Assembly: GCA_947570695.1 (NCBI GenBank)
Contig: CANOVB010000005.1
Coordinates: 67,487-131,486, forward strand
DNA length: 64,000 bases
DNA from: an uncultured Clostridium sp.
Lineage (GTDB): Bacteria > Bacillota > Clostridia > TANB77 > CAG-508
Reading direction: 5' to 3'
The notes below the pieces were generated by a model. It was not told the origin of the DNA. It saw only the letters and a list, made by a program, of their open reading frames with translations, and did not search any database. A program made the position numbers and the translations under genes. This document shows, piece after piece, positions 14,822 to 44,072 of the stretch (the stretch's first letter is position 1; every line of letters starts with the position of its first letter).

Positions 14822-16099
14822 TTACGTGATATTCAATGTTTTGCCGTTGGTCAAGACCACTTGTGTTACGAGTCCCAATTTGTTGGTGTTGAAGCTCGCA
14901 GCGTCGTAACAGAACCGATAGCCGTCCTGAGGGCGGTCATAGATGGAACTGACGAACACCTGATTATCCCTGATATAGCAGAACTGCTTATCAGAGATGA
15001 AGCCGAAAGCGGTGATGTTTGACATGTACCACCCTGTATAGATTCTCGAGGCGATAATCGTCCCATTGAGATACAGGGAGCCGTCTGTAAGCATCAGAGT
15101 GTTGCTTTCAACTGTGCCCTTGGTGTACAAGGTAGCATAGGTGTCCTTTACGACAGCGTAGGTTTCCTTAGCAATCCACTTGTCGTTTGTGGAGGTGAAT
15201 TGCTTCAGGGTGTAAGTGGACTTCTCTGTAACGATTTCCGAGAGGAAACCATTGCTGTCAGTCCTGAAGGTCTTGAACTTGCTGTCCAGGGTAACCTTCT
15301 CCGCAGAGTACCAGTTTCCGAAAGTGAAACGGTACAGAGTACCATTGCTTTCGTAGAGGTACACGTTGTAGCTGGTATCGAATCCCAAGAATTTAGCACC
15401 CTTAAGGGTGTCGGACAGCCGGACGCCGTGAGTTGCATTGAGAACGCTCTTTTCGTCTTTGCTCACAATGATGGAAACCTTCAGGTTGCCAAACTCGTAA
15501 GCGTTACGAACGAACTCGCTCTCAGCGTTGGTGTACATTTCAACACGGCTGGTGTTATTTCCCGGCCTCTGAGGAACAGAAGGCTGAGAAGGCTGGCTGG
15601 GTTGAGACGGCTGGGAAGGCTGAGTCGGCGTACTGGGAACGGTGCTACCAGTAAGAGACTGGTTACCACTTGTGGTTTGCACCGAAGTTGCCAGATCGTC
15701 GCTGTTGTAAAGCAGACATGTTACGCCAGAAGCGTACCAAGTCGATTGCTTACCATCGCTTCCAACGCTAATCAGTGCACCAGCGCTGGTGACGTAGAAG
15801 AAATCGCCATTTGTGGCAAAGCCGTTGTAACGGGAACCGGAGCCAGCAGAGTTGCTCGCAAGAACGGTTCCATTGTTGTTATACACGGTGCTGCCGATGC
15901 TGTAAAAGCTTTTGCTGGGAACGTGGGCGTCCTGCCGGCGGTCATAGGTGTACAGCTTGTACCAGGTGCAGCCCGAGGAGGCGTCATCATAGGTAAAGCC
16001 GTACGGCGCTGTGTCGGCGGTCGTGGCGGCGAAAGCAGTGGGGCAGACCCCAAAGAAGCAGCACACAACCAGGAACAATGCGATCAAAGATTTTTTCAT
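14822..16099 (-). CDS. secreted two-domain protein of unknown function with a (PSQ)n linker; foreign GC-rich composition
   Basis: Start at MKKSLIALFLVVCCFFGVCPTAFAATT (signal peptide) with RBS AGAAAGG. Extended -10 promoter TGCTATAAT with -35 TTGCCT upstream. About 55-58% GC against a ~27% background, with codons such as CTG/GGC/CGC/ACC. Internal 9-bp tandem repeats encode PSQPSQPSQPSQPS. No recognisable homology. Confidence 0.7.
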   Translation of the reverse strand: MKKSLIALFLVVCCFFGVCPTAFAATTADTAPYGFTYDDASSGCTWYKLYTYDRRQDAHVPSKSFYSIGSTVYNNNGTVLASNSAGSGSRYNGFATNGDFFYVTSAGALISVGSDGKQSTWYASGVTCLLYNSDDLATSVQTTSGNQSLTGSTVPSTPTQPSQPSQPSQPSQPSVPQRPGNNTSRVEMYTNAESEFVRNAYEFGNLKVSIIVSKDEKSVLNATHGVRLSDTLKGAKFLGFDTSYNVYLYESNGTLYRFTFGNWYSAEKVTLDSKFKTFRTDSNGFLSEIVTEKSTYTLKQFTSTNDKWIAKETYAVVKDTYATLYTKGTVESNTLMLTDGSLYLNGTIIASRIYTGWYMSNITAFGFISDKQFCYIRDNQVFVSSIYDRPQDGYRFCYDAASFNTNKLGLVTQVVLTNGKTLNIT

Positions 16100-16255
16100 G
16101 TTAGTCAACCTTTCTGTGTTAAAATAAATCTTCAAAACCATGTTAGTTCAACAAATAGCCAAAAGGTCAGCTAAATAAAGTTGAACATCAAATCCCATAA
16201 AATCATTATAGCACAAACTAGTAAAAAAGGCAAATTTATGTAAAGCTATAAAAAG

Positions 16256-16308: not shown

Positions 16309-16749
16309 TTAGAAATTCGCGTTTGGATCATCTGATAATTTGTACAGTAAATAGTCTGGGTCAACCTGAACGATATAGTGACTTCCACTTTTGGTGGTGA
16401 AAAGAAACCAGTCGGGTGCAATTTCTTCAAATGACTCTACTAGAGTCGTATTGAGATATTTTACACTGGTATCTGTAACACTAACAATAACGGAAGCTCT
16501 TTTACCCTTTGTAGGGTAACATAAGCAGACTCCAACTGTGGATTTATGTTTTAACTGAAGTTCAGTTATGTTAACAAACCATTCCACAGGGAAAAAATGC
16601 TCTACGTCGTCAATCTTGACAATGTACCGTTCAAAACCACTCATGTATACTGTCCACGAGGCCTCATATGCTTCTCCAACTTCTAAAAGCCTAAAATTGC
16701 ATTTTGGACCGCCGTGGATATCAATAGAACCATTGTACACGAGTTTCAC
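16309..16749 (-). CDS. hypothetical cytoplasmic protein, GTG start, intermediate (~42%) GC, part of the foreign cassette
   Basis: GTG start 6 nt after AGAGGTGA. 146 aa with no recognisable motif. Composition departs from the host. Confidence 0.55.
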   Translation of the reverse strand: MKLVYNGSIDIHGGPKCNFRLLEVGEAYEASWTVYMSGFERYIVKIDDVEHFFPVEWFVNITELQLKHKSTVGVCLCYPTKGKRASVIVSVTDTSVKYLNTTLVESFEEIAPDWFLFTTKSGSHYIVQVDPDYLLYKLSDDPNANF

Positions 16750-18475: not shown

Positions 18476-18581
18476 GGGGGACGTTTGTTAATGGACATTT
18501 TTGTCCGTTAGGGATAGATATTATTTATTTTTTAAACATCTGTAATAAAGAGGACAAAAATGTCCATTAACAAACGTCCCC
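18476..18581. mobile_element. palindromic MITE-like element inserted between spoVAC and spoVAD
   Basis: Perfect 30-bp inverted arms GGGGGACGTTTGTTAATGGACATTTTTGTCC / GGACAAAAATGTCCATTAACAAACGTCCCC around a 46-bp AT-rich loop. A second copy is at 47585-47646. Confidence 0.6.
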
Positions 18582-28177: not shown

Positions 28178-28528
28178 GTGATGAACGGTAGCAACAATCG
28201 CACTATGGAGTTGACGGCAATGAACGAGCAAGGCGTTTTCACCCTGATTTTCCGGGATGACGAGCTGCTGAGAGAGTTCGAGAACATGGTTTCCATGTTC
28301 AACCGGAAGCAGGAAGAGCTGATCGTCACCGAGATCGGCGAAAGCAACGGCAGAATCTTTGAGGTCAAGCGCGTCGAGGGACGCCCCACTTGTTGGGAGC
28401 TGGCTCTGCACAAGTATATGAGCCTGTCCAACACCACAAAGACCAACAAGATTACCGGAAAGAAGTACGAGCCTGTACTGTTTACGCCGCTGCGCTTCGT
28501 GAGTCAGACAGAAGAAGCGGCCTGCTAA
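28178..28528 (+). CDS. hypothetical small cytoplasmic protein (116 aa) with foreign GC-rich composition
   Basis: GTG/ATG start after AGGAGG. About 55% GC with CTG/GGC/CGC codons. No recognisable homology. Confidence 0.65.
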   Translation: MMNGSNNRTMELTAMNEQGVFTLIFRDDELLREFENMVSMFNRKQEELIVTEIGESNGRIFEVKRVEGRPTCWELALHKYMSLSNTTKTNKITGKKYEPVLFTPLRFVSQTEEAAC

Positions 28529-29035: not shown

Positions 29036-29395
29036 ATGAATGAAGAATTAATTAATGAAGATATTCAGATAGTCGATGAAAGAAAAGTAAAAAAGGTAAA
29101 AGAAACACTACCATCTGATGAATTAATTTTTGATTTAGCTGAATTATTTAAAGTTTTTGGAGATTCAACAAGAATGAAAATAATATGTGCTTTATTAGAA
29201 GAAGAACTTTGTGTAGGGGATATAGCAAGTATAACAAATTCAACACCATCTGCAATTTCACATCAATTAAGAGTGTTAAAACAGTCAAAGCTTGTTAAAT
29301 ATAGAAAAGAAGGAAAAATAGTTTATTATTCACTTGATGATGATCATGTAAAACAAATCTTTGAGAAAGGTCGTGAACACATTGAAGAAGTATAA
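29036..29395 (+). CDS. cadC: ArsR/SmtB-family metalloregulator (CadC-like)
   Basis: HTH region ELCVGDIASITNSTPSAISHQLRVLK. Genetic context with a P1B-ATPase. Confidence 0.8.
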   Translation: MNEELINEDIQIVDERKVKKVKETLPSDELIFDLAELFKVFGDSTRMKIICALLEEELCVGDIASITNSTPSAISHQLRVLKQSKLVKYRKEGKIVYYSLDDDHVKQIFEKGREHIEEV

Positions 29396-31457
29396 TTTTT
29401 TACTTAAAAATTTAGATTGTGCTAATTGTGCAAATAAAATTCAAAATAAATTAGCAGAAAATAAAGACTACAAAAATGTTAATGTTAATTTTAGTACATT
29501 AAAATTAACATTAGAAAGCGAACTAGAGAATATAAAACAAGATATTGTAAAAATTGTTTCTGAATTAGAACCAGGAGTAGAAGTAATAGATATGCATAAT
29601 CATATTCATGCTAATAAAGAAGATAAAAAAAAGCCAAAAATAAACAAGAATTTTGTAAGATTAATGGTTGGAATAATTTTCATGATATTTGGGCTATTTA
29701 TTAACCTTCCAAGAAATTATAATTTAATATGTACAGTTTTTGCTTATGCAATCTTATTATATAGAACAACAAAAAATGCATTGAAACTATTAAAAAATAA
29801 GGTAATAGATGAAAATTTTTTAGTAACGATTTCTTGTATTGGAGCTTTTTTTATAGGAGAACAAAAAGAAGGACTAATGGTTATAGTTTTATATGAAATA
29901 GGAAAATTATTAGAGGATAAAGCTGTTAATAATACGAGAAAATCAATTACGAATTTAATGGATATAAAGCCAGAGTATGCAAATTTGAAACATGAACATC
30001 ATGAGCATAGGGTAAACCCAGAGGAAGTAAATGTAGGAGACATTATAATTGTAAAACAAGGGGAAAAAGTAGCGTTAGATGGGATAGTAATTTCAGGAGA
30101 AGCTTCATTAAATACAGCATCATTAACAGGAGAAAGTAAACTTTTAAAAGTAAAAGAAAATGATAATATAATTTCAGGTAGTATAAACGAAAAAGGATTA
30201 ATTGAAGTAAAAGTAACAGAAAAATATGAAAATAGTACAGTAAAGAGAATACTAGAATTAGTTGAAAATGCTACTGATAAAAAAGCAAAAACTGAAACTT
30301 TTGTAAATAAAGCTTCAAGAATTTATACTCCAATAGTAGTAGCTTTAGCATTAGCTGTTGCAATATTTTTACCATTAATATTAAATATACAATATTCAGA
30401 AAGTATATACAGAGCTTTAATATTTTTAGTAGTTTCTTGCCCTTGTGCTATTGTTATATCAGTTCCTTTAAGTTATTTTACAGGAATAGGAAAAGCCTCA
30501 AAATCTGGAATATTAATAAAAGGAAGTAATTACTTAGATAGTTTAAAAAATATTGGGGAAATTGTATTTGACAAAACAGGAACTCTTACAAAAGGAGAAT
30601 TTGGAGTAGAAGAAATAAAACCATATTCAAGCAAATATACTGAAAATGAAATATTAGAATATGCAGCATTAGGAGAAAGTCTATCTAATCATCCTATTGC
30701 TATAGCAATATTAAAAGAATATGGAAAAGTTATAGAAAAAGATAAAATAATAAATTTTGAAGAGGTTTCTGGGAAGGGAATAAAATATAAAATTGAAAAT
30801 AAAGAAGTTAAAATAGGAAATTCTGACTTTACGGGAGCTAAAAATGAAGATAAAATTGGAACAGTTATTTATGTAAAAATAGATGATGAAATTGCTGGAG
30901 ATATAGTATTAAATGATATTTTAAAACCAGAGACAAAAGAAGCAATAGGTAAATTAAAATCTTTAGGAATTAAAACAAAAATGTTTACAGGAGACAATAA
31001 AGATATAGCAAAAAAGATTGGGAATGAAATCGAAATAGATGAAATAAGATCAGAAATGCTACCACAAGATAAATATAATGAAGTAGAAAAAATAATAAAT
31101 AAAAAAAGAGAAACAAAAGAAAAAGTAGCATTTGTAGGAGATGGAATTAATGATTCTCCAGTTTTAGCACTATCTGATATAGGAATTTCAATGGGAGGAA
31201 TTGGTGCAAGTTCAGCTATTGAAGCATCAGATGTTGTTATTATGACAGATGATTTAATAAAAATCGAAGAAGCAATCAATATATCTAAAAAAACAAATAA
31301 AATAATAATGCAAAACTTATTGTTTGCTTTATTAATAAAGGTTTTAGTACTAATTTTGAGTATGTTTGGAATAGCACAAATGTGGCAAGCAGTTTTTGCA
31401 GATGTTGGAGTAACACTAATTACAATATTAAATACAATGAGAATATTAAAAAATTAA
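29361..31457 (+). CDS. cadA: heavy-metal (Cd/Zn-type) translocating P1B-type ATPase
   Basis: N-terminal CANCANK metal-binding motif, CPC in TM6 (SCPCAIV), DKTGTLT phosphorylation site, GDGINDSP. The start overlaps the cadC end; exact start (TTG/GTG) is uncertain. Confidence 0.85.
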   Translation: MRKVVNTLKKYNFLLKNLDCANCANKIQNKLAENKDYKNVNVNFSTLKLTLESELENIKQDIVKIVSELEPGVEVIDMHNHIHANKEDKKKPKINKNFVRLMVGIIFMIFGLFINLPRNYNLICTVFAYAILLYRTTKNALKLLKNKVIDENFLVTISCIGAFFIGEQKEGLMVIVLYEIGKLLEDKAVNNTRKSITNLMDIKPEYANLKHEHHEHRVNPEEVNVGDIIIVKQGEKVALDGIVISGEASLNTASLTGESKLLKVKENDNIISGSINEKGLIEVKVTEKYENSTVKRILELVENATDKKAKTETFVNKASRIYTPIVVALALAVAIFLPLILNIQYSESIYRALIFLVVSCPCAIVISVPLSYFTGIGKASKSGILIKGSNYLDSLKNIGEIVFDKTGTLTKGEFGVEEIKPYSSKYTENEILEYAALGESLSNHPIAIAILKEYGKVIEKDKIINFEEVSGKGIKYKIENKEVKIGNSDFTGAKNEDKIGTVIYVKIDDEIAGDIVLNDILKPETKEAIGKLKSLGIKTKMFTGDNKDIAKKIGNEIEIDEIRSEMLPQDKYNEVEKIINKKRETKEKVAFVGDGINDSPVLALSDIGISMGGIGASSAIEASDVVIMTDDLIKIEEAINISKKTNKIIMQNLLFALLIKVLVLILSMFGIAQMWQAVFADVGVTLITILNTMRILKN

Positions 31458-31473
31458 ATATAAAAAATCAAGG

Positions 31474-31517
31474 GGACCCGTTTTGTGATTAGCTCACAAA
31501 CGGGTCCCTCTTTTTGG
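31474..31517. terminator. bidirectional GC-rich hairpin terminator (serves cadA on + and the GC-rich gene on -)
   Basis: GGGACCCGTTTTGTGA-TTAGC-TCACAAACGGGTCCC flanked by A-run and T-run. Confidence 0.7.
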
Positions 31518-31527
31518 AAAAGTTTGC

Positions 31528-32037
31528 TTACAGCAGACTGAGAAACTCAGGGGGACAAAACAGAGGTCTGTAGTCCGTGAAGTCCTTAATCAGCTGTTTC
31601 AGGTTTTCTTGACTGATATTATCAGCCACATAGGCAACCAAAGGCTTGAGTAGATGCTTGCCGGGGGCGTTCTGAACAAGAGCGATTCCGTAAACATCTT
31701 TTTTTACAGTCAGAATCACATCTTTGGAGGTCTTTTCCTTGTAATCACGGATTGCTTTCCAAAACTCATCAAAAGAGGTAACATTGGAAGCTTTGGTGCT
31801 GAAGGAAAGAGACCAAGCGATTTTCTGACCGCGGCTTTTCGGCATTTCAGCCCTGATGACAGAGGGAGCTTTGTTCATTCCGTTGTGCGAAATGTAGAAA
31901 CATTCCCCAATGCTTGCTTGGCAGTTAGTGGATGGGTATCCACATAAAGATGTCCGCAACTCATGACCATCAAATGAAGCTCTAACAGATTCAGAGATTG
32001 TGATGGACATAGGAGATTTCCACAAAAAAACCTGCAT
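31528..32037 (-). CDS. hypothetical cytoplasmic protein (169 aa), foreign GC-rich composition
   Basis: RBS GGAAAGG 5 nt before the first ATG. About 48% GC. No recognisable homology. Confidence 0.6.
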   Translation of the reverse strand: MQVFLWKSPMSITISESVRASFDGHELRTSLCGYPSTNCQASIGECFYISHNGMNKAPSVIRAEMPKSRGQKIAWSLSFSTKASNVTSFDEFWKAIRDYKEKTSKDVILTVKKDVYGIALVQNAPGKHLLKPLVAYVADNISQENLKQLIKDFTDYRPLFCPPEFLSLL

Positions 32038-32336
32038 TCTTACCTTTCCCTACGGTAGCAAAAGGCTACTTTCGTTCCCAAAATTTGGTATAGTAGTATG
32101 TTTTGGGCTAACATTTTGTTGAATTTTTGCCTGAATTGACTTTAAAACATAGGCAGATATATAGTTTCAACATTCCTATTATAACATAGATTAACATAAA
32201 TTTCAATTTTAATATTTAATAGTTTTATACTTTACTATAAAATTGCATATTATATATGTTATAATAAATATAATGTCCCAGAGAGGAACGTATTGCATGC
32301 CTGTAATTAGGCATATGACAACAGGAGGAGATCGCA

Positions 32337-32747
32337 ATGAAAAGACGGAGAAAAAAGCCTAGTCCTATGAGTAAAATTTTGGTATTCGTGGCAGGGGTAC
32401 TTTTGGGAGTATCAGCTACACTGAGCTATTTTACATTTTCTGAGTACCAAAATAGTCCCCCTAAACCCGCCAACCCAAGAATGAACATAGTTGCACACGG
32501 CTCATGGATTCATTCTAATGATGGTGGCAGTTATACTATTTCAGCTTTAGGTTATGGAAAACTGTACTCTAATGTCGCGTTCAGTAATGAGGTTTCAGCA
32601 ACTGAGCACCCTGTCGAGGTTCGTAGTGAGGGATATACGATACAAATCGACATTGTAGGATGGTATAAAAAAACAGTAACTATGACTGCTGGAGAGTCAC
32701 TGCTAATAGGTGTACCTGAGGCTTATCTTTATGTAATTGTTGTCTAA
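32337..32747 (+). CDS. hypothetical membrane-anchored/secreted protein (136 aa), foreign GC-rich composition
   Basis: RBS AGGAGG. N-terminus MKRRRKKPSPMSKILVFVAGVLLGVSATLSYF is a signal anchor. About 45% GC. Divergent from the 31528-32037 gene across a 300-bp shared promoter region. Confidence 0.6.
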   Translation: MKRRRKKPSPMSKILVFVAGVLLGVSATLSYFTFSEYQNSPPKPANPRMNIVAHGSWIHSNDGGSYTISALGYGKLYSNVAFSNEVSATEHPVEVRSEGYTIQIDIVGWYKKTVTMTAGESLLIGVPEAYLYVIVV

Positions 32748-32753
32748 GGCAAA

Positions 32754-32806
32754 AGAGCCGGAGTGAATGAGAATTCAAATTCACTCCGGCTCTAGACGCT
32801 TTATTA
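32754..32806 (+). terminator. GC-rich hairpin terminator of the cassette
   Basis: AGAGCCGGAGTGAAT...ATTCACTCCGGCTCT 15-bp perfect stem, followed by a T-rich run. Confidence 0.6.
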
Positions 32807-32983
32807 TCAAGAGCGACTGATATATTATTATAAAAAATTGTAATTAGTTAGATACCAGAATTTCTAAAAAGATTGATTTTTAACCAAAAGAAGAGTATAA
32901 TGTATAAGTATTTTATATAAGTATAAATAAAATTACATAAACTTGATTTATATAATTTTTTAGCTAAAGATGGAGGAAGTATT

Positions 32984-33979
32984 ATGAAAAAAACAATATT
33001 AAGTGGAATTCAAGCCACAGGCAGTTTAACTTTAGGAAATTATTTAGGAGCATTAAATAATTGGGTAGAAATGCAAGATGAATATGATTGTTATTATATG
33101 ATTGCAGATTTACATACTTTAACAATTAGAAATGATCCAGAAAAATTAAGAGAAAATACTTTAAATTTAATTGCATTATACATTGCAGCAGGATTAGATC
33201 CAGATAAAAATACTATATTTATTCAATCACATATTCCTGCACATACACAACTATCTTGGGTTCTAAATTGTTATACTTATATGGGTGAACTAAATAGAAT
33301 GACACAATTTAAAGATAAGAGTGCAAAACATGCAGATAATATAAATAGCGGATTATATACATATCCAGTATTAATGGCTGCTGATATATTAATATATAAT
33401 GCTGATTTAGTACCAGTTGGAGAGGATCAAAAACAACATTTAGAAATAGCAAGAGATATAGCAGATAGATTTAATTCTTTATATGGAGAAACTTTTAAAA
33501 TGCCAGAGCCTTATATAGGAAAAGTAGGTGCAAGAATAATGGGATTACAAAATCCAACAGCCAAAATGAGCAAAAGTGCGGTAGACCCAATGGATAAAAT
33601 TCTTTTAACAGATGAACCAGATGAAATTAGAAAAAAATTTAAAAAAGCAGTTACAGATTCTGAAAATTGTGTAAGATATAATAGAGAAACAAAACCAGGT
33701 GTAAGTAATTTAATGGCTATCTATGGAATAATAAAAAATAAAACAATGGAGGATATTGAAAAAGAATTTGAAGGTCAAGGCTATGGAGTATTTAAAACAG
33801 CTGTAGCAGAAGCTGTAGTTGAAAGATTAGAACCACTACAAAAAAGATATAATGAGTTATTAGAAAACAAAGAGGAATTAATGGCAATTTGTGAAAAAGG
33901 TGCTAAAAAAGCAACTGAAAAAGCAAATAAATTAGTTAAAGATGTTTATAAGAAAGTAGGATTAGTGGTTAATGAATAA
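32984..33979 (+). CDS. trpS: tryptophanyl-tRNA synthetase
   Basis: SGIQATGSLTLGNYLGA (HIGH-equivalent) and KMSKS with full-length TrpS similarity. No T-box leader upstream. Confidence 0.9.
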   Translation: MKKTILSGIQATGSLTLGNYLGALNNWVEMQDEYDCYYMIADLHTLTIRNDPEKLRENTLNLIALYIAAGLDPDKNTIFIQSHIPAHTQLSWVLNCYTYMGELNRMTQFKDKSAKHADNINSGLYTYPVLMAADILIYNADLVPVGEDQKQHLEIARDIADRFNSLYGETFKMPEPYIGKVGARIMGLQNPTAKMSKSAVDPMDKILLTDEPDEIRKKFKKAVTDSENCVRYNRETKPGVSNLMAIYGIIKNKTMEDIEKEFEGQGYGVFKTAVAEAVVERLEPLQKRYNELLENKEELMAICEKGAKKATEKANKLVKDVYKKVGLVVNE

Positions 33980-37128: not shown

Positions 37129-37239
37129 AAAAGAGAGATAGAAAATAATCTATTATAAGTATTTACATTTTTTAATTTTATGATATAATATGTAACATAG
37201 TAAAAAAGGCGTTTGATTAAGAATTAAGTAGTAAATAAA

Positions 37240-37442
37240 CTTTTTAAAAGAGAGCTTATGGTTGGTGAGAATAAGTAAAAGAATTTACGAAATCTACTCT
37301 TAAGAGTTTCTAGAAAACTAGACCGAGTTATTGCAGGTTATAGCAATTTGAAAGATGGATTAGATTAATCTAAAAAAGGTGGTACCGCGATATATTCGCC
37401 CTTATGTATTTTTTACATGGGGGCGTTTTTGTTTAAAATATT
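37240..37442 (+). promoter_or_regulatory. T-box riboswitch leader, probable Ser (UCU) specifier
   Basis: Conserved T-box core AAAAGGTGGTACCGCG at 37375-37390. It is followed by the terminator GCCCTTATGTA-TTTTT-TACATGGGGGC plus a T-run. A stem I candidate has AAAUCUAC in the specifier-loop position. Confidence 0.75.
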
Positions 37443-43574: not shown

Positions 43575-43795
43575 ATATATTGCCCCTAAACCTAATTTAA
43601 GAATAGGGTGTAAGCTAACTTAATATGATTACTGGTTAAAAATCTGTTATAGTATTGCTACTATTTTTTTTCTTAACCTATGGTAGTAATTACCACTAGA
43701 GCATCCGCCGAATCTTTCGATAACTCTAGACCTCGTCAACTATTTTTAAAATTTATATGTATAAAAATTTTAAAGTAGTCCTGGCGCTAACCTTT
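43575..43795 (-). ncRNA. glmS ribozyme (GlcN6P-responsive self-cleaving riboswitch) in the glmS 5' UTR
   Basis: The minus strand reads ...GTTAGCGCCAGGACT... (cleavage-site/P1 region) and ...TTGACGAGGTCTAGAGTTATCGAAAGATTCGGCGGATGCTCTAG..., matching the conserved GACGAGG and UUCGGCGGAUGC core elements. Confidence 0.75.
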
Positions 43796-44072
43796 GTTTT
43801 AAATAATATACTCCTTTCTAAACTTTTGCTTACAAACTAGAAATTAAAAATTTTTTCTAGTAACCTATTTCTTTTATATAATATTCGAATTTTTTTAAAA
43901 TGTCAATATTATTTTTTGGATGTTAATGAATGTATATATATAAATGCATTCTAAATATTGAGGCTCTAAGAATTAAAATTTAAATAATTCTGGTAAAACA
44001 TTGCTAAAAGGAAATAAATATTCTTTACATGAAAAAGTAATTATAATATAATAGCTATGTATTAAAAATAGA

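Follow-up and report, generated by a model that had tools for sequence, protein, structure and literature searches.

Translational riboswitches of the preQ1, SAM-II/SAM-V and guanidine-III classes are pseudoknotted RNAs that fold next to the Shine-Dalgarno (SD) sequence, and variable gene slots are conserved chromosomal positions at which divergent alleles lie between conserved flanks. The Breaker-laboratory pipeline reportedly recovers orphan structured-RNA motifs as GC-rich intergenic regions in AT-rich genomes (PMC6429828, PMC11109978, PMC8723152). Here we describe a locus that resembles each of these systems in part. It lies in a 64-kb stretch of DNA from an uncultured Clostridium sp. (the window, meaning the whole stretch), which looks Firmicute-like (~25% GC), and it comprises two divergent open reading frames (ORFs) between cadA and trpS, gene A and gene B, whose start codons are 299 bp apart. 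An initial annotation had interpreted the pair as one foreign cassette inserted between the flanking genes. Its observations were largely right, and the two ORFs of 169 and 136 amino acids (aa) exist as it described them, but the interpretation as a single foreign functional cassette is wrong. Instead, the region probably consists of two independent units, an ancestral gene A with its leader RNA and a recently acquired orphan gene B module; we assign this explanation a probability of roughly 0.7. The direct support comes from synteny, the protein family, fold prediction, selection, composition, the promoter, RNA covariation and the limits of the insertion.

The surroundings of gene A were compared across about 20 distinct related loci (L003-L035), in which neighbouring genes were placed by tblastn with the window proteins. 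Gene A adjoins trpS, cadA or both in all of them, the full order trpS<- ->A-> <-cadA-arsR is present in every recovered locus that extends far enough, and obg is frequently found beyond trpS. Identity to the window proteins amounts to 82-86% for Obg, 56-76% for CadA and only 24-70% for gene A. Because homologues at this last level of identity fill the same slot in the related loci, gene A is an ancestral resident of a clade of ~25%-GC uncultured Clostridia and not an insertion. It occurs there singly or as a tandem A-A arrangement, and never together with gene B. The idea of one inserted cassette therefore survives for the gene B module, which is a lineage-specific insertion, but not for gene A. 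A word-index search returned only two close gene A clusters (64-70% identity), and 53 clusters at 50% identity, nearly all of ~170 aa, emerged when 1.84 billion representatives were searched in full with an HMMER profile; a scan of GTDB genomes yielded one distant locus, the window's own species not being among the results. All family members recovered sit at the single trpS/cadA locus, and the family founded by gene A is uncharacterised and confined to this clade.

Two further features of these loci were observed. In five loci of one sub-lineage (L018-L022; for example L021, positions 532-1080 and 1100-1636) gene A is present as a tandem pair whose members share only ~31% identity, and copy 2 starts ~20 nt past copy 1 with its own SD sequence, the leader being present only before copy 1. 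In addition, the trpS gene beside gene A exists in two forms, with ~35% (L011, L013, L017, L023) or 83-87% (L010, L025) identity to the window TrpS. Since these divergent forms stand beside a constant Obg (82-86%), the comparison suggests that trpS may have been replaced in some lineages while the gene order was kept.

The gene A product lacks a hydrophobic segment and belongs to a mildly basic family (median isoelectric point, pI, of 8.8). The predicted cytoplasmic location of this protein and the signal-anchored nature of the gene B product both hold, a hydrophobic segment being present in gene B only. Neither product carries a recognisable motif, in agreement with the initial annotation: searches of Pfam, PHROGs, PADLOC and NCBIfam with gene B, and with the window protein and family members of gene A, returned nothing significant. 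Toxin, antitoxin, immunity and defence families gave only sub-threshold chance matches, the best of them linking a gene A family member (P0018) to PADLOC E1-E2 with an E value of 0.0021, and neither product matched a regulator family. AlphaFold (AF2), supplied with an alignment of 44 sequences, predicted the structure of gene A with a predicted local distance difference test score (pLDDT) of 96.7 and a predicted template modelling score (pTM) of 0.89; a run on only 3 sequences was useless (pLDDT 33). The predicted model combines an N-terminal seven-stranded part with a C-terminal alpha/beta part. It found no fold match in the PDB or BFVD, and no significant similarity to the paired beta-alpha-beta-beta-beta modules of the VOC/glyoxalase-bleomycin-resistance fold was detected. 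The family alignment retrieved no gene A homologue from viral contigs, and the comparison of both proteins with phages and plasmids returned nothing except a chance 29-residue match. With a confident predicted structure and no detectable relatives, the family is well suited to the discovery of a new function.

Gene A encodes a real, constrained protein under purifying selection, with ratios of nonsynonymous to synonymous divergence (dN/dS) of 0.08-0.22 in 11 comparisons. Its dS is 2-7 times that of the flanking genes for the same lineage pairs, and its dN is higher too. Between the window and L003, dS reaches 2.2 in gene A and 0.36 in TrpS, and between L033 and L034 the gene A products are 60% identical (dS 1.7) and the CadA proteins 95% identical (dS 0.24). 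In this last pair, sliding nucleotide identity is 87-100% in cadA but only 40-78% in gene A, with a sharp break at the 3' end of gene A.

The composition of gene A is equally distinctive. GC content at third codon positions (GC3) is 0.476 in gene A and 0.314 in gene B, as against 0.119 +/- 0.034 in 47 host-like ORFs of the window, and composition shifts abruptly at the edges of the GC-rich segments. The foreign-looking composition first reported is truly aberrant, but the overall GC contents, 43.9% in gene A and 40.4% in gene B, are lower than the 45-48% originally given. In every lineage gene A is the outlier, with GC3 of 0.27-0.51 beside neighbours of 0.05-0.15. At its third positions A drops from ~0.55 to 0.18-0.35 and C rises from 0.03 to 0.13-0.31, G being modestly increased and T unchanged; the shift is strand-specific, and amino-acid usage is host-like. 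Since gene A stays GC3-rich in every lineage despite saturated synonymous sites, its GC excess is a maintained state and not the fading trace of a recent import, and a recent foreign origin of gene A is unlikely. The initial annotation had named well-annotated orthologues of matching composition in AT-rich relatives as a finding that would speak against an import, and half of this holds: such relatives do have orthologues, but these too are GC-rich, and it is this that calls for explanation. Purifying selection combined with a GC3 three- to four-fold above that of the genome, across lineages with saturated synonymous sites, is an unusual pattern. It cautions against equating compositional outliers with recently transferred genes, and gene A lends itself naturally to a comparison of GC-biased conversion with selection at synonymous sites in bacterial genomes.

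Frequent allelic exchange at the gene A locus would be the likeliest cause of both the fast turnover and the GC excess, with GC-biased conversion or selection on mRNA possibly adding to the latter. A link between recombination and GC content has been documented across bacteria (PMC4450053). A mechanism resembling the adenine mutagenesis of diversity-generating retroelements, considered on account of the depletion of A at third positions, was rejected: the whole gene is affected rather than a variable repeat, and dN/dS is low. No hint of a reverse transcriptase or template repeat was seen in the window, where no screen was aimed at either. Additional small ORFs with GC3 of 0.31-0.34 among neighbours of 0.07-0.15 were observed in L010 (330-653), L017 (3777-4013) and L025 (187-456), and small genes of high GC3 may form a wider class, or be a general trait, in this clade.

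The same turnover could also be accommodated, more tentatively, if gene A were a hypervariable conflict locus (immunity, anti-phage or self/non-self) whose alleles are swapped by homologous recombination in the trpS and cadA flanks, its GC excess arising from recombination through GC-biased conversion or reflecting a pool of alleles richer in GC. This proposal overlaps with the explanation favoured here and adds a conflict function to it. The L033/L034 mosaic with its sharp break, the several-fold elevation of dS and dN over the flanks, the tandem duplications of gene A and the repeated gain of genes in the adjacent spacer (L024, L026/L028 and gene B of the window) are in line with it, as is the documented link between recombination and GC content. 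However, dN/dS remains low throughout, and the gene as a whole gives no sign of diversifying selection; PADLOC returned no defence family; phages, plasmids and viral contigs held no reservoir of alleles; all recovered family members occupy one locus; and defence genes do not usually have so complex and conserved a leader. We therefore regard a conflict function as possible but doubtful. The comparison with variable gene slots is similarly divided. The gene A locus shares with them conserved flanks, a sharp drop in identity, raised dS and dN, atypical composition and gains in the spacer, but it differs in holding one small cytoplasmic gene of one family, under purifying selection and without a mobility or defence signature.

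Turning to the second component of the explanation favoured here, the leader of a resident gene A, we found that the gene is preceded by a sigma-A-type promoter that fits 11 of 12 consensus positions and is the best in the region; promoter and spacer are conserved upstream of the leader in 12 lineages (TTGAAA-17-TGnTATAAT). Across lineages, the leader keeps a fixed place between this promoter and the start codon of gene A family members. The 300-bp "shared control region" originally proposed for the two genes actually contains two back-to-back promoters and is mostly transcribed leader of gene A. Four helices (P1-P4) and a pseudoknot are predicted in the leader (Table 1). The P2 loop carries a conserved UCAAAYUC-like motif. 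The pseudoknot is formed by CCCAG/CUGGG or by its variants CCUGG/CCAGG in L013, CUCAG/CUGAG in L017 and CCCAAAA/UUUUGGG in the window, and P4 by GUAGC/GCUAC, AUGG/CCAU, CUGCA/UGCAG, CUGUG/CACAG, GCAUA/UAUGC, GUAUA/UAUAC or CGGU/ACCG. Two leader types can be distinguished. In type 1, which includes the window, CUGGGAACGAAAG is followed by P4, CCGUAGGGAAAGG and the AUG; in type 2, GGAAGGAG stands directly 5' of the pseudoknot strand, and the AUG lies ~12 nt past P4. The motifs CCGTAGGGAAAGG and GGGAACGAAAG are each unique in the window.

Compensatory substitutions indicate that the secondary structure of the leader is conserved. In an alignment of type 2 leaders made with MAFFT only (A6), 97.5% of the cells are paired and 8 of 27 pairs are compensatory, 2 of them in the pseudoknot; none of 500 shuffles scored as high, and slid controls reached 19-58%. 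For the type 1 core, again with MAFFT only (A7), 92.6% are paired and 3 of 13 pairs are compensatory (slid controls 22-38%). Fitting type 1 leaders to model R2 (A12) gave 95.9% pairing with 16 of 24 pairs compensatory (0/500 shuffles as high; slid controls 28-45%), and a structure-guided hand alignment of 18 sequences gave 96.9% with 20 of 26 (shuffled mean 69%). Model R2, seeded on 3 close sequences only, located the leader upstream of gene A in 9 further lineages with E values of 1e-11 to 0.01 (12 matches in total). The matches lie directly upstream of gene A except in L018, where the match ends ~120 nt before the tblastn match of copy 1, whose N-terminus was not located. In the 64-kb window the model has a single match, at the gene A leader (154.8 bits). 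Rfam 15 contained no match to the leader even at E<=10, and a permissive scan of positions 31400-32900 produced only chance matches far below the gathering threshold.

From this arrangement we infer leader-based regulation and its mode of action, just as the cause of the GC excess and any biochemical function are inferred. The sigma-A-type promoter would drive a ~140-nt leader folding as P1 enclosing P2, followed by P3 and P4, and the CCCAG-like P3 loop would pair with the CUGGG-like stretch just upstream of P4 to form the pseudoknot. Formation or melting of the P3/pseudoknot/P4 fold beside the SD sequence would gate the access of ribosomes to gene A. The leader is accordingly viewed as a putative cis-regulatory RNA, a riboswitch or else a leader bound by a protein, that would act on translation initiation, because the pseudoknot and P4 abut the SD sequence and no terminator-like U-run follows P4. 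Its partner could be a metabolite or a protein, possibly the basic product of gene A itself. Two other possibilities were rejected for this leader. A leader peptide or upstream ORF is not conserved in the family, the candidates being an ATG-YTT-TAR in the P2 loop and an ORF from P3 found only in the closest relatives. A T-box or attenuator is at odds with the lack of an Rfam T-box match here and of a U-run after P4.

Like the preQ1, SAM-II/SAM-V and guanidine-III riboswitches, the gene A leader is a 5' untranslated region (UTR) element that extends from a conserved promoter to the start codon and contains a pseudoknot between a hairpin loop and a downstream strand abutting the ribosome-binding site. 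It is also riboswitch-like in that its stems covary around conserved nucleotides in loops and junctions (CCCAG, CUGGGAACGAAAG, CCGUAGGGAAAGG). Unlike those classes, it is larger, with four helices in ~140 nt, has two architectural types and matches nothing in Rfam 15. The motifs found by the Breaker-laboratory approach resemble the leader, which is structured and fairly GC-rich in a 25%-GC genome, is tied to one gene family and was recognised by comparative covariation; the leader differs in that the downstream coding sequence (CDS) is GC-rich too, a comparison in which the motif lists entered only via Rfam. The leader thus represents a well-defined, testable orphan RNA tied to one gene family in abundant uncultured gut Clostridia. 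A bolder version, which we consider rather unlikely, would make it a new class of signal-sensing riboswitch or a new autoregulatory RNA for a protein family of new fold, and would attribute the sustained GC3 excess and fast turnover of a vertically held locus to a gene-specific process as yet undescribed in AT-rich Firmicutes (very strong GC-biased conversion driven by recombination, or selection for A-poor mRNA). If this were true, the process acting in gene A may also explain other small GC-rich genes in these genomes.

Several points weigh against the explanation that we favour. The window leader alone folds no better than shuffled sequences (z -0.44), so the RNA claim rests on covariation among 18 sequences of one clade, and two of the alignments, being structure-guided or model-fitted, are biased toward pairing. 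Only a small number of independent events (L013, L017 and the window) speak for the pseudoknot, and P3 is absent in L016, L017 and L025. The purine-rich SD-like tract is placed differently in the two leader types, and a single expression-platform mechanism is not evident. The type 2 model misses the window leader at E<=10 and recovers type 1 leaders weakly (L003, E 0.004); for this reason the proposed homology of the two types is based on their shared architecture and position. With regard to the GC excess, conversion effects in bacteria reportedly amount to only a few GC3 points, and the 20-40 additional GC3 points of gene A lie far above them.

If the repeats upstream of gene A were instead DNA operators, the similar TGCCT...AGGCA before gene B could indicate one repressor for both genes, an arrangement that we find improbable. 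P2 (TGCCT-N18-AGGCA) and the repeat before gene B (TGCCT-N6-AGGCA) do have half-sites in common, and the lack of a thermodynamic signal in the window leader alone would suit a DNA element. Nevertheless, every paired element is located downstream of the conserved -10 box, the stems turn into unrelated sequences while complementarity is kept, G-U pairs included, and the two segments joined by the pseudoknot, which show compensatory changes, are not palindromic and are separated by 20-40 nt. A single dimeric binder could not accommodate half-sites spaced by both 6 and 18 nt. The inverted repeat that had been put forward as a candidate operator is present in the gene B 5' UTR, but it does not exceed chance expectation: the UTR folds no better than shuffled sequences (z -1.07, with 32 of 200 as good).

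The third component of the favoured explanation, the insertion of gene B, is delimited by comparison with the closest relatives. L003 and L004 contain ~9 nt between the -35 boxes of gene A and trpS, where the window has ~657 bp. The right edge is marked by the trpS promoter, at which a conserved "AAAAATCAA...ATTATAC" block is found in relatives. Within the module, a candidate gene B promoter (TGtTATAAT) lies at 32257-32265, and the encoded protein has a KRRRKK stretch followed by one strong hydrophobic segment (residues ~14-32). A search among 5.8 billion proteins returned no homologue of gene B except a 99% variant, phages and plasmids contained none, and the gene is absent from every related locus recovered. 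Gene B is a lineage-specific, recently acquired orphan module: absence from the site in relatives, a test for genomic islets, was found for this module and not for gene A. The module, with its promoter, signal-anchored protein and strong terminator, entered the variable spacer that separates the divergent promoters of gene A and trpS. This spacer is a recurrent landing site, because other lineages carry different genes there. Such spacer genes were observed in L024 (462-1517; 351 aa) and in L026 and L028 (382-1467 and 868-1962; 361-364 aa), and they have host-like composition and no Pfam match. Among hallmarks of mobility, the insertion showed no shared or flanking repeats, and no GTTRRRY-type core was seen at the hairpins on reading the sequence, recombinase genes lying outside this screen.

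Table 1. Features of the cadA-trpS region; positions refer to the window, and helix strands are listed in the direction of gene A transcription with plus-strand coordinates.
Feature	Position	Strand	Description
cadA	29361-31457	plus	left flank
Bidirectional intrinsic terminator	31472-31509	both	serves cadA (plus) and gene A (minus); GC-rich hairpin with a U-run on each strand
Gene A	31528-32037	minus	169 aa, cytoplasmic, pI ~9; starts at the ATG of MQ(V/I)FLW, SD GGGAAAGG upstream
Gene A 5' leader (predicted)	32038-32177	minus	~140 nt
Gene A SD	32050-32043	minus	directly after P4, followed by AUG
P4 (predicted)	32069-32065 with 32059-32055	minus	helix before the SD; extended by ACG/CGU
Pseudoknot (predicted)	P3 loop 32107-32103 with 32081-32077	minus	downstream strand just 5' of P4
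P3 (predicted)	32114-32110 with 32102-32098	minus	AUGUU/AACAU, AUGUC/GACAU, UCAAG/CUUGA, UUAAG/CUUAA, AAGC/GCUU, UAAGG/CCUUA
P2 (predicted)	32155-32151 with 32132-32128	minus	UGCCU/AGGCA, UGUCU/AGACA, ACUGG/CCAGU, ACCGA/UUGGU across lineages
P1 (predicted)	32171-32166 with 32123-32118	minus	GUUGAA/UUCAAC, elsewhere GUUUAAG/CUUAAAC; encloses P2
Gene A promoter	32178-32206	minus	TTGAAA-17 nt-TATAAT with TG extension (TTGAAA-17-TGtTATAAT); sigma-A-type
Gene B module	32208-32864	plus	~657 bp; AT-rich promoter region, 5' UTR, SD, CDS and terminator
Inverted repeat	32296-32317	plus	CATGCCT-GTAATT-AGGCATATG; gene B 5' UTR; TGCCT/AGGCA in common with leader P2
Gene B	32337-32747	plus	136-aa orphan; N-terminal signal peptide or signal anchor; SD AGGAGGAG at 32323-32330
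Gene B terminator hairpin	32754-32793	plus	15-bp perfect stem, weak U-tract
trpS promoter	32873-32901	plus	TTGATT-17 nt-TATAAT; ancestral, right edge of the gene B insertion
trpS	32984-33979	plus	right flank

The initial proposal of one foreign two-gene cassette, a toxin/immunity or regulator/effector pair recently inserted between cadA and trpS with its own terminators, has become very improbable. It had in its favour that both genes are GC-rich and divergent, that neither belongs to a known family and that strong hairpins stand on either side. Both hairpins are real and stable: the left one folds at -27.8 kcal/mol on the minus strand and -26.4 on the plus strand (z ~ -5), the right one at -32.5 kcal/mol (z -7.5), and in neither case was any of 200 shuffled sequences as low. 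They are, however, ordinary intrinsic terminators, and the left one does not delimit a cassette, since it also terminates cadA and is kept in relatives with covarying stems. The insertion spans only the gene B module, gene A is syntenic in ~20 related loci that lack gene B, and a homologue of gene B was found nowhere among the proteins searched; the boundaries have no repeats in common. As a functional pair the two genes fail on co-occurrence, on organisation (they are divergent, with separate promoters and terminators) and on homology, and gene A and gene B do not constitute such a pair. The locus is arguably more interesting than was claimed, as it unites an orphan leader RNA, a protein family without detectable structural relatives and a GC-rich, fast-evolving resident gene.

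Despite the abrupt change in composition at the segment edges, assembly chimerism or contamination, a concern for which validation of the junctions had been advised, is practically discounted by the occurrence of the exact gene A and gene B proteins on 117-132 contigs from independent metagenomes (ENA, JGI, NCBI, Logan; longest 234 kb) in an identical context, by two independent assemblies with 99.93-99.98% identity to the window across 12.5 kb including both junctions, and by orthologous GC-rich genes at the same site in many other assemblies. L001 and L002 share 99.9% identity with the window and show zero differences inside the cassettes, so that variation within the species is uninformative. 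At the DNA level, the whole region showed no similarity to phages or plasmids.

The left terminator was also recognised in L003 (~1125-1165) and L009 (~640-680), where the lower stem is rewritten and still pairs, and its apical GTGAGCTA(A)TCAC is identical in three species. Such conservation of this apical mini-hairpin is unusual for a terminator loop.

The window contains two other GC-rich cassettes, one with a 439-aa secreted protein with a PSQPSQ linker (14822-16141, minus strand, GC3 0.64) and a 146-aa protein (16309-16749, minus strand, GC3 0.36), the other with a 116-aa protein (28178-28528, plus strand, GC3 0.74). No match to these three proteins was found in PADLOC and NCBIfam, nor to the 116-aa protein in Pfam, the only one of the three compared with it. 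As to the insertion style first described as common to all three cassettes, their boundaries have no repeats in common. Co-occurrence of the five cassette proteins likewise does not hold, as gene A is always found without the others in the ~20 related loci, none of which yielded a protein of the other two cassettes.

Elsewhere in the window, an Rfam scan at the gathering threshold found no T-box at trpS itself; the only families reaching the gathering score were a T-box leader at 37203-37406 on the plus strand (93.8 bits) and a glmS ribozyme at 43624-43799 on the minus strand (77 bits). Finally, at 18477-18581, just past spoVA-like genes, GGGGACGTTTGTTAATGGACATTTTTGTCC and its complement form a perfect 30-nt inverted repeat whose arms are 45 nt apart; it is far longer than an ordinary terminator stem.

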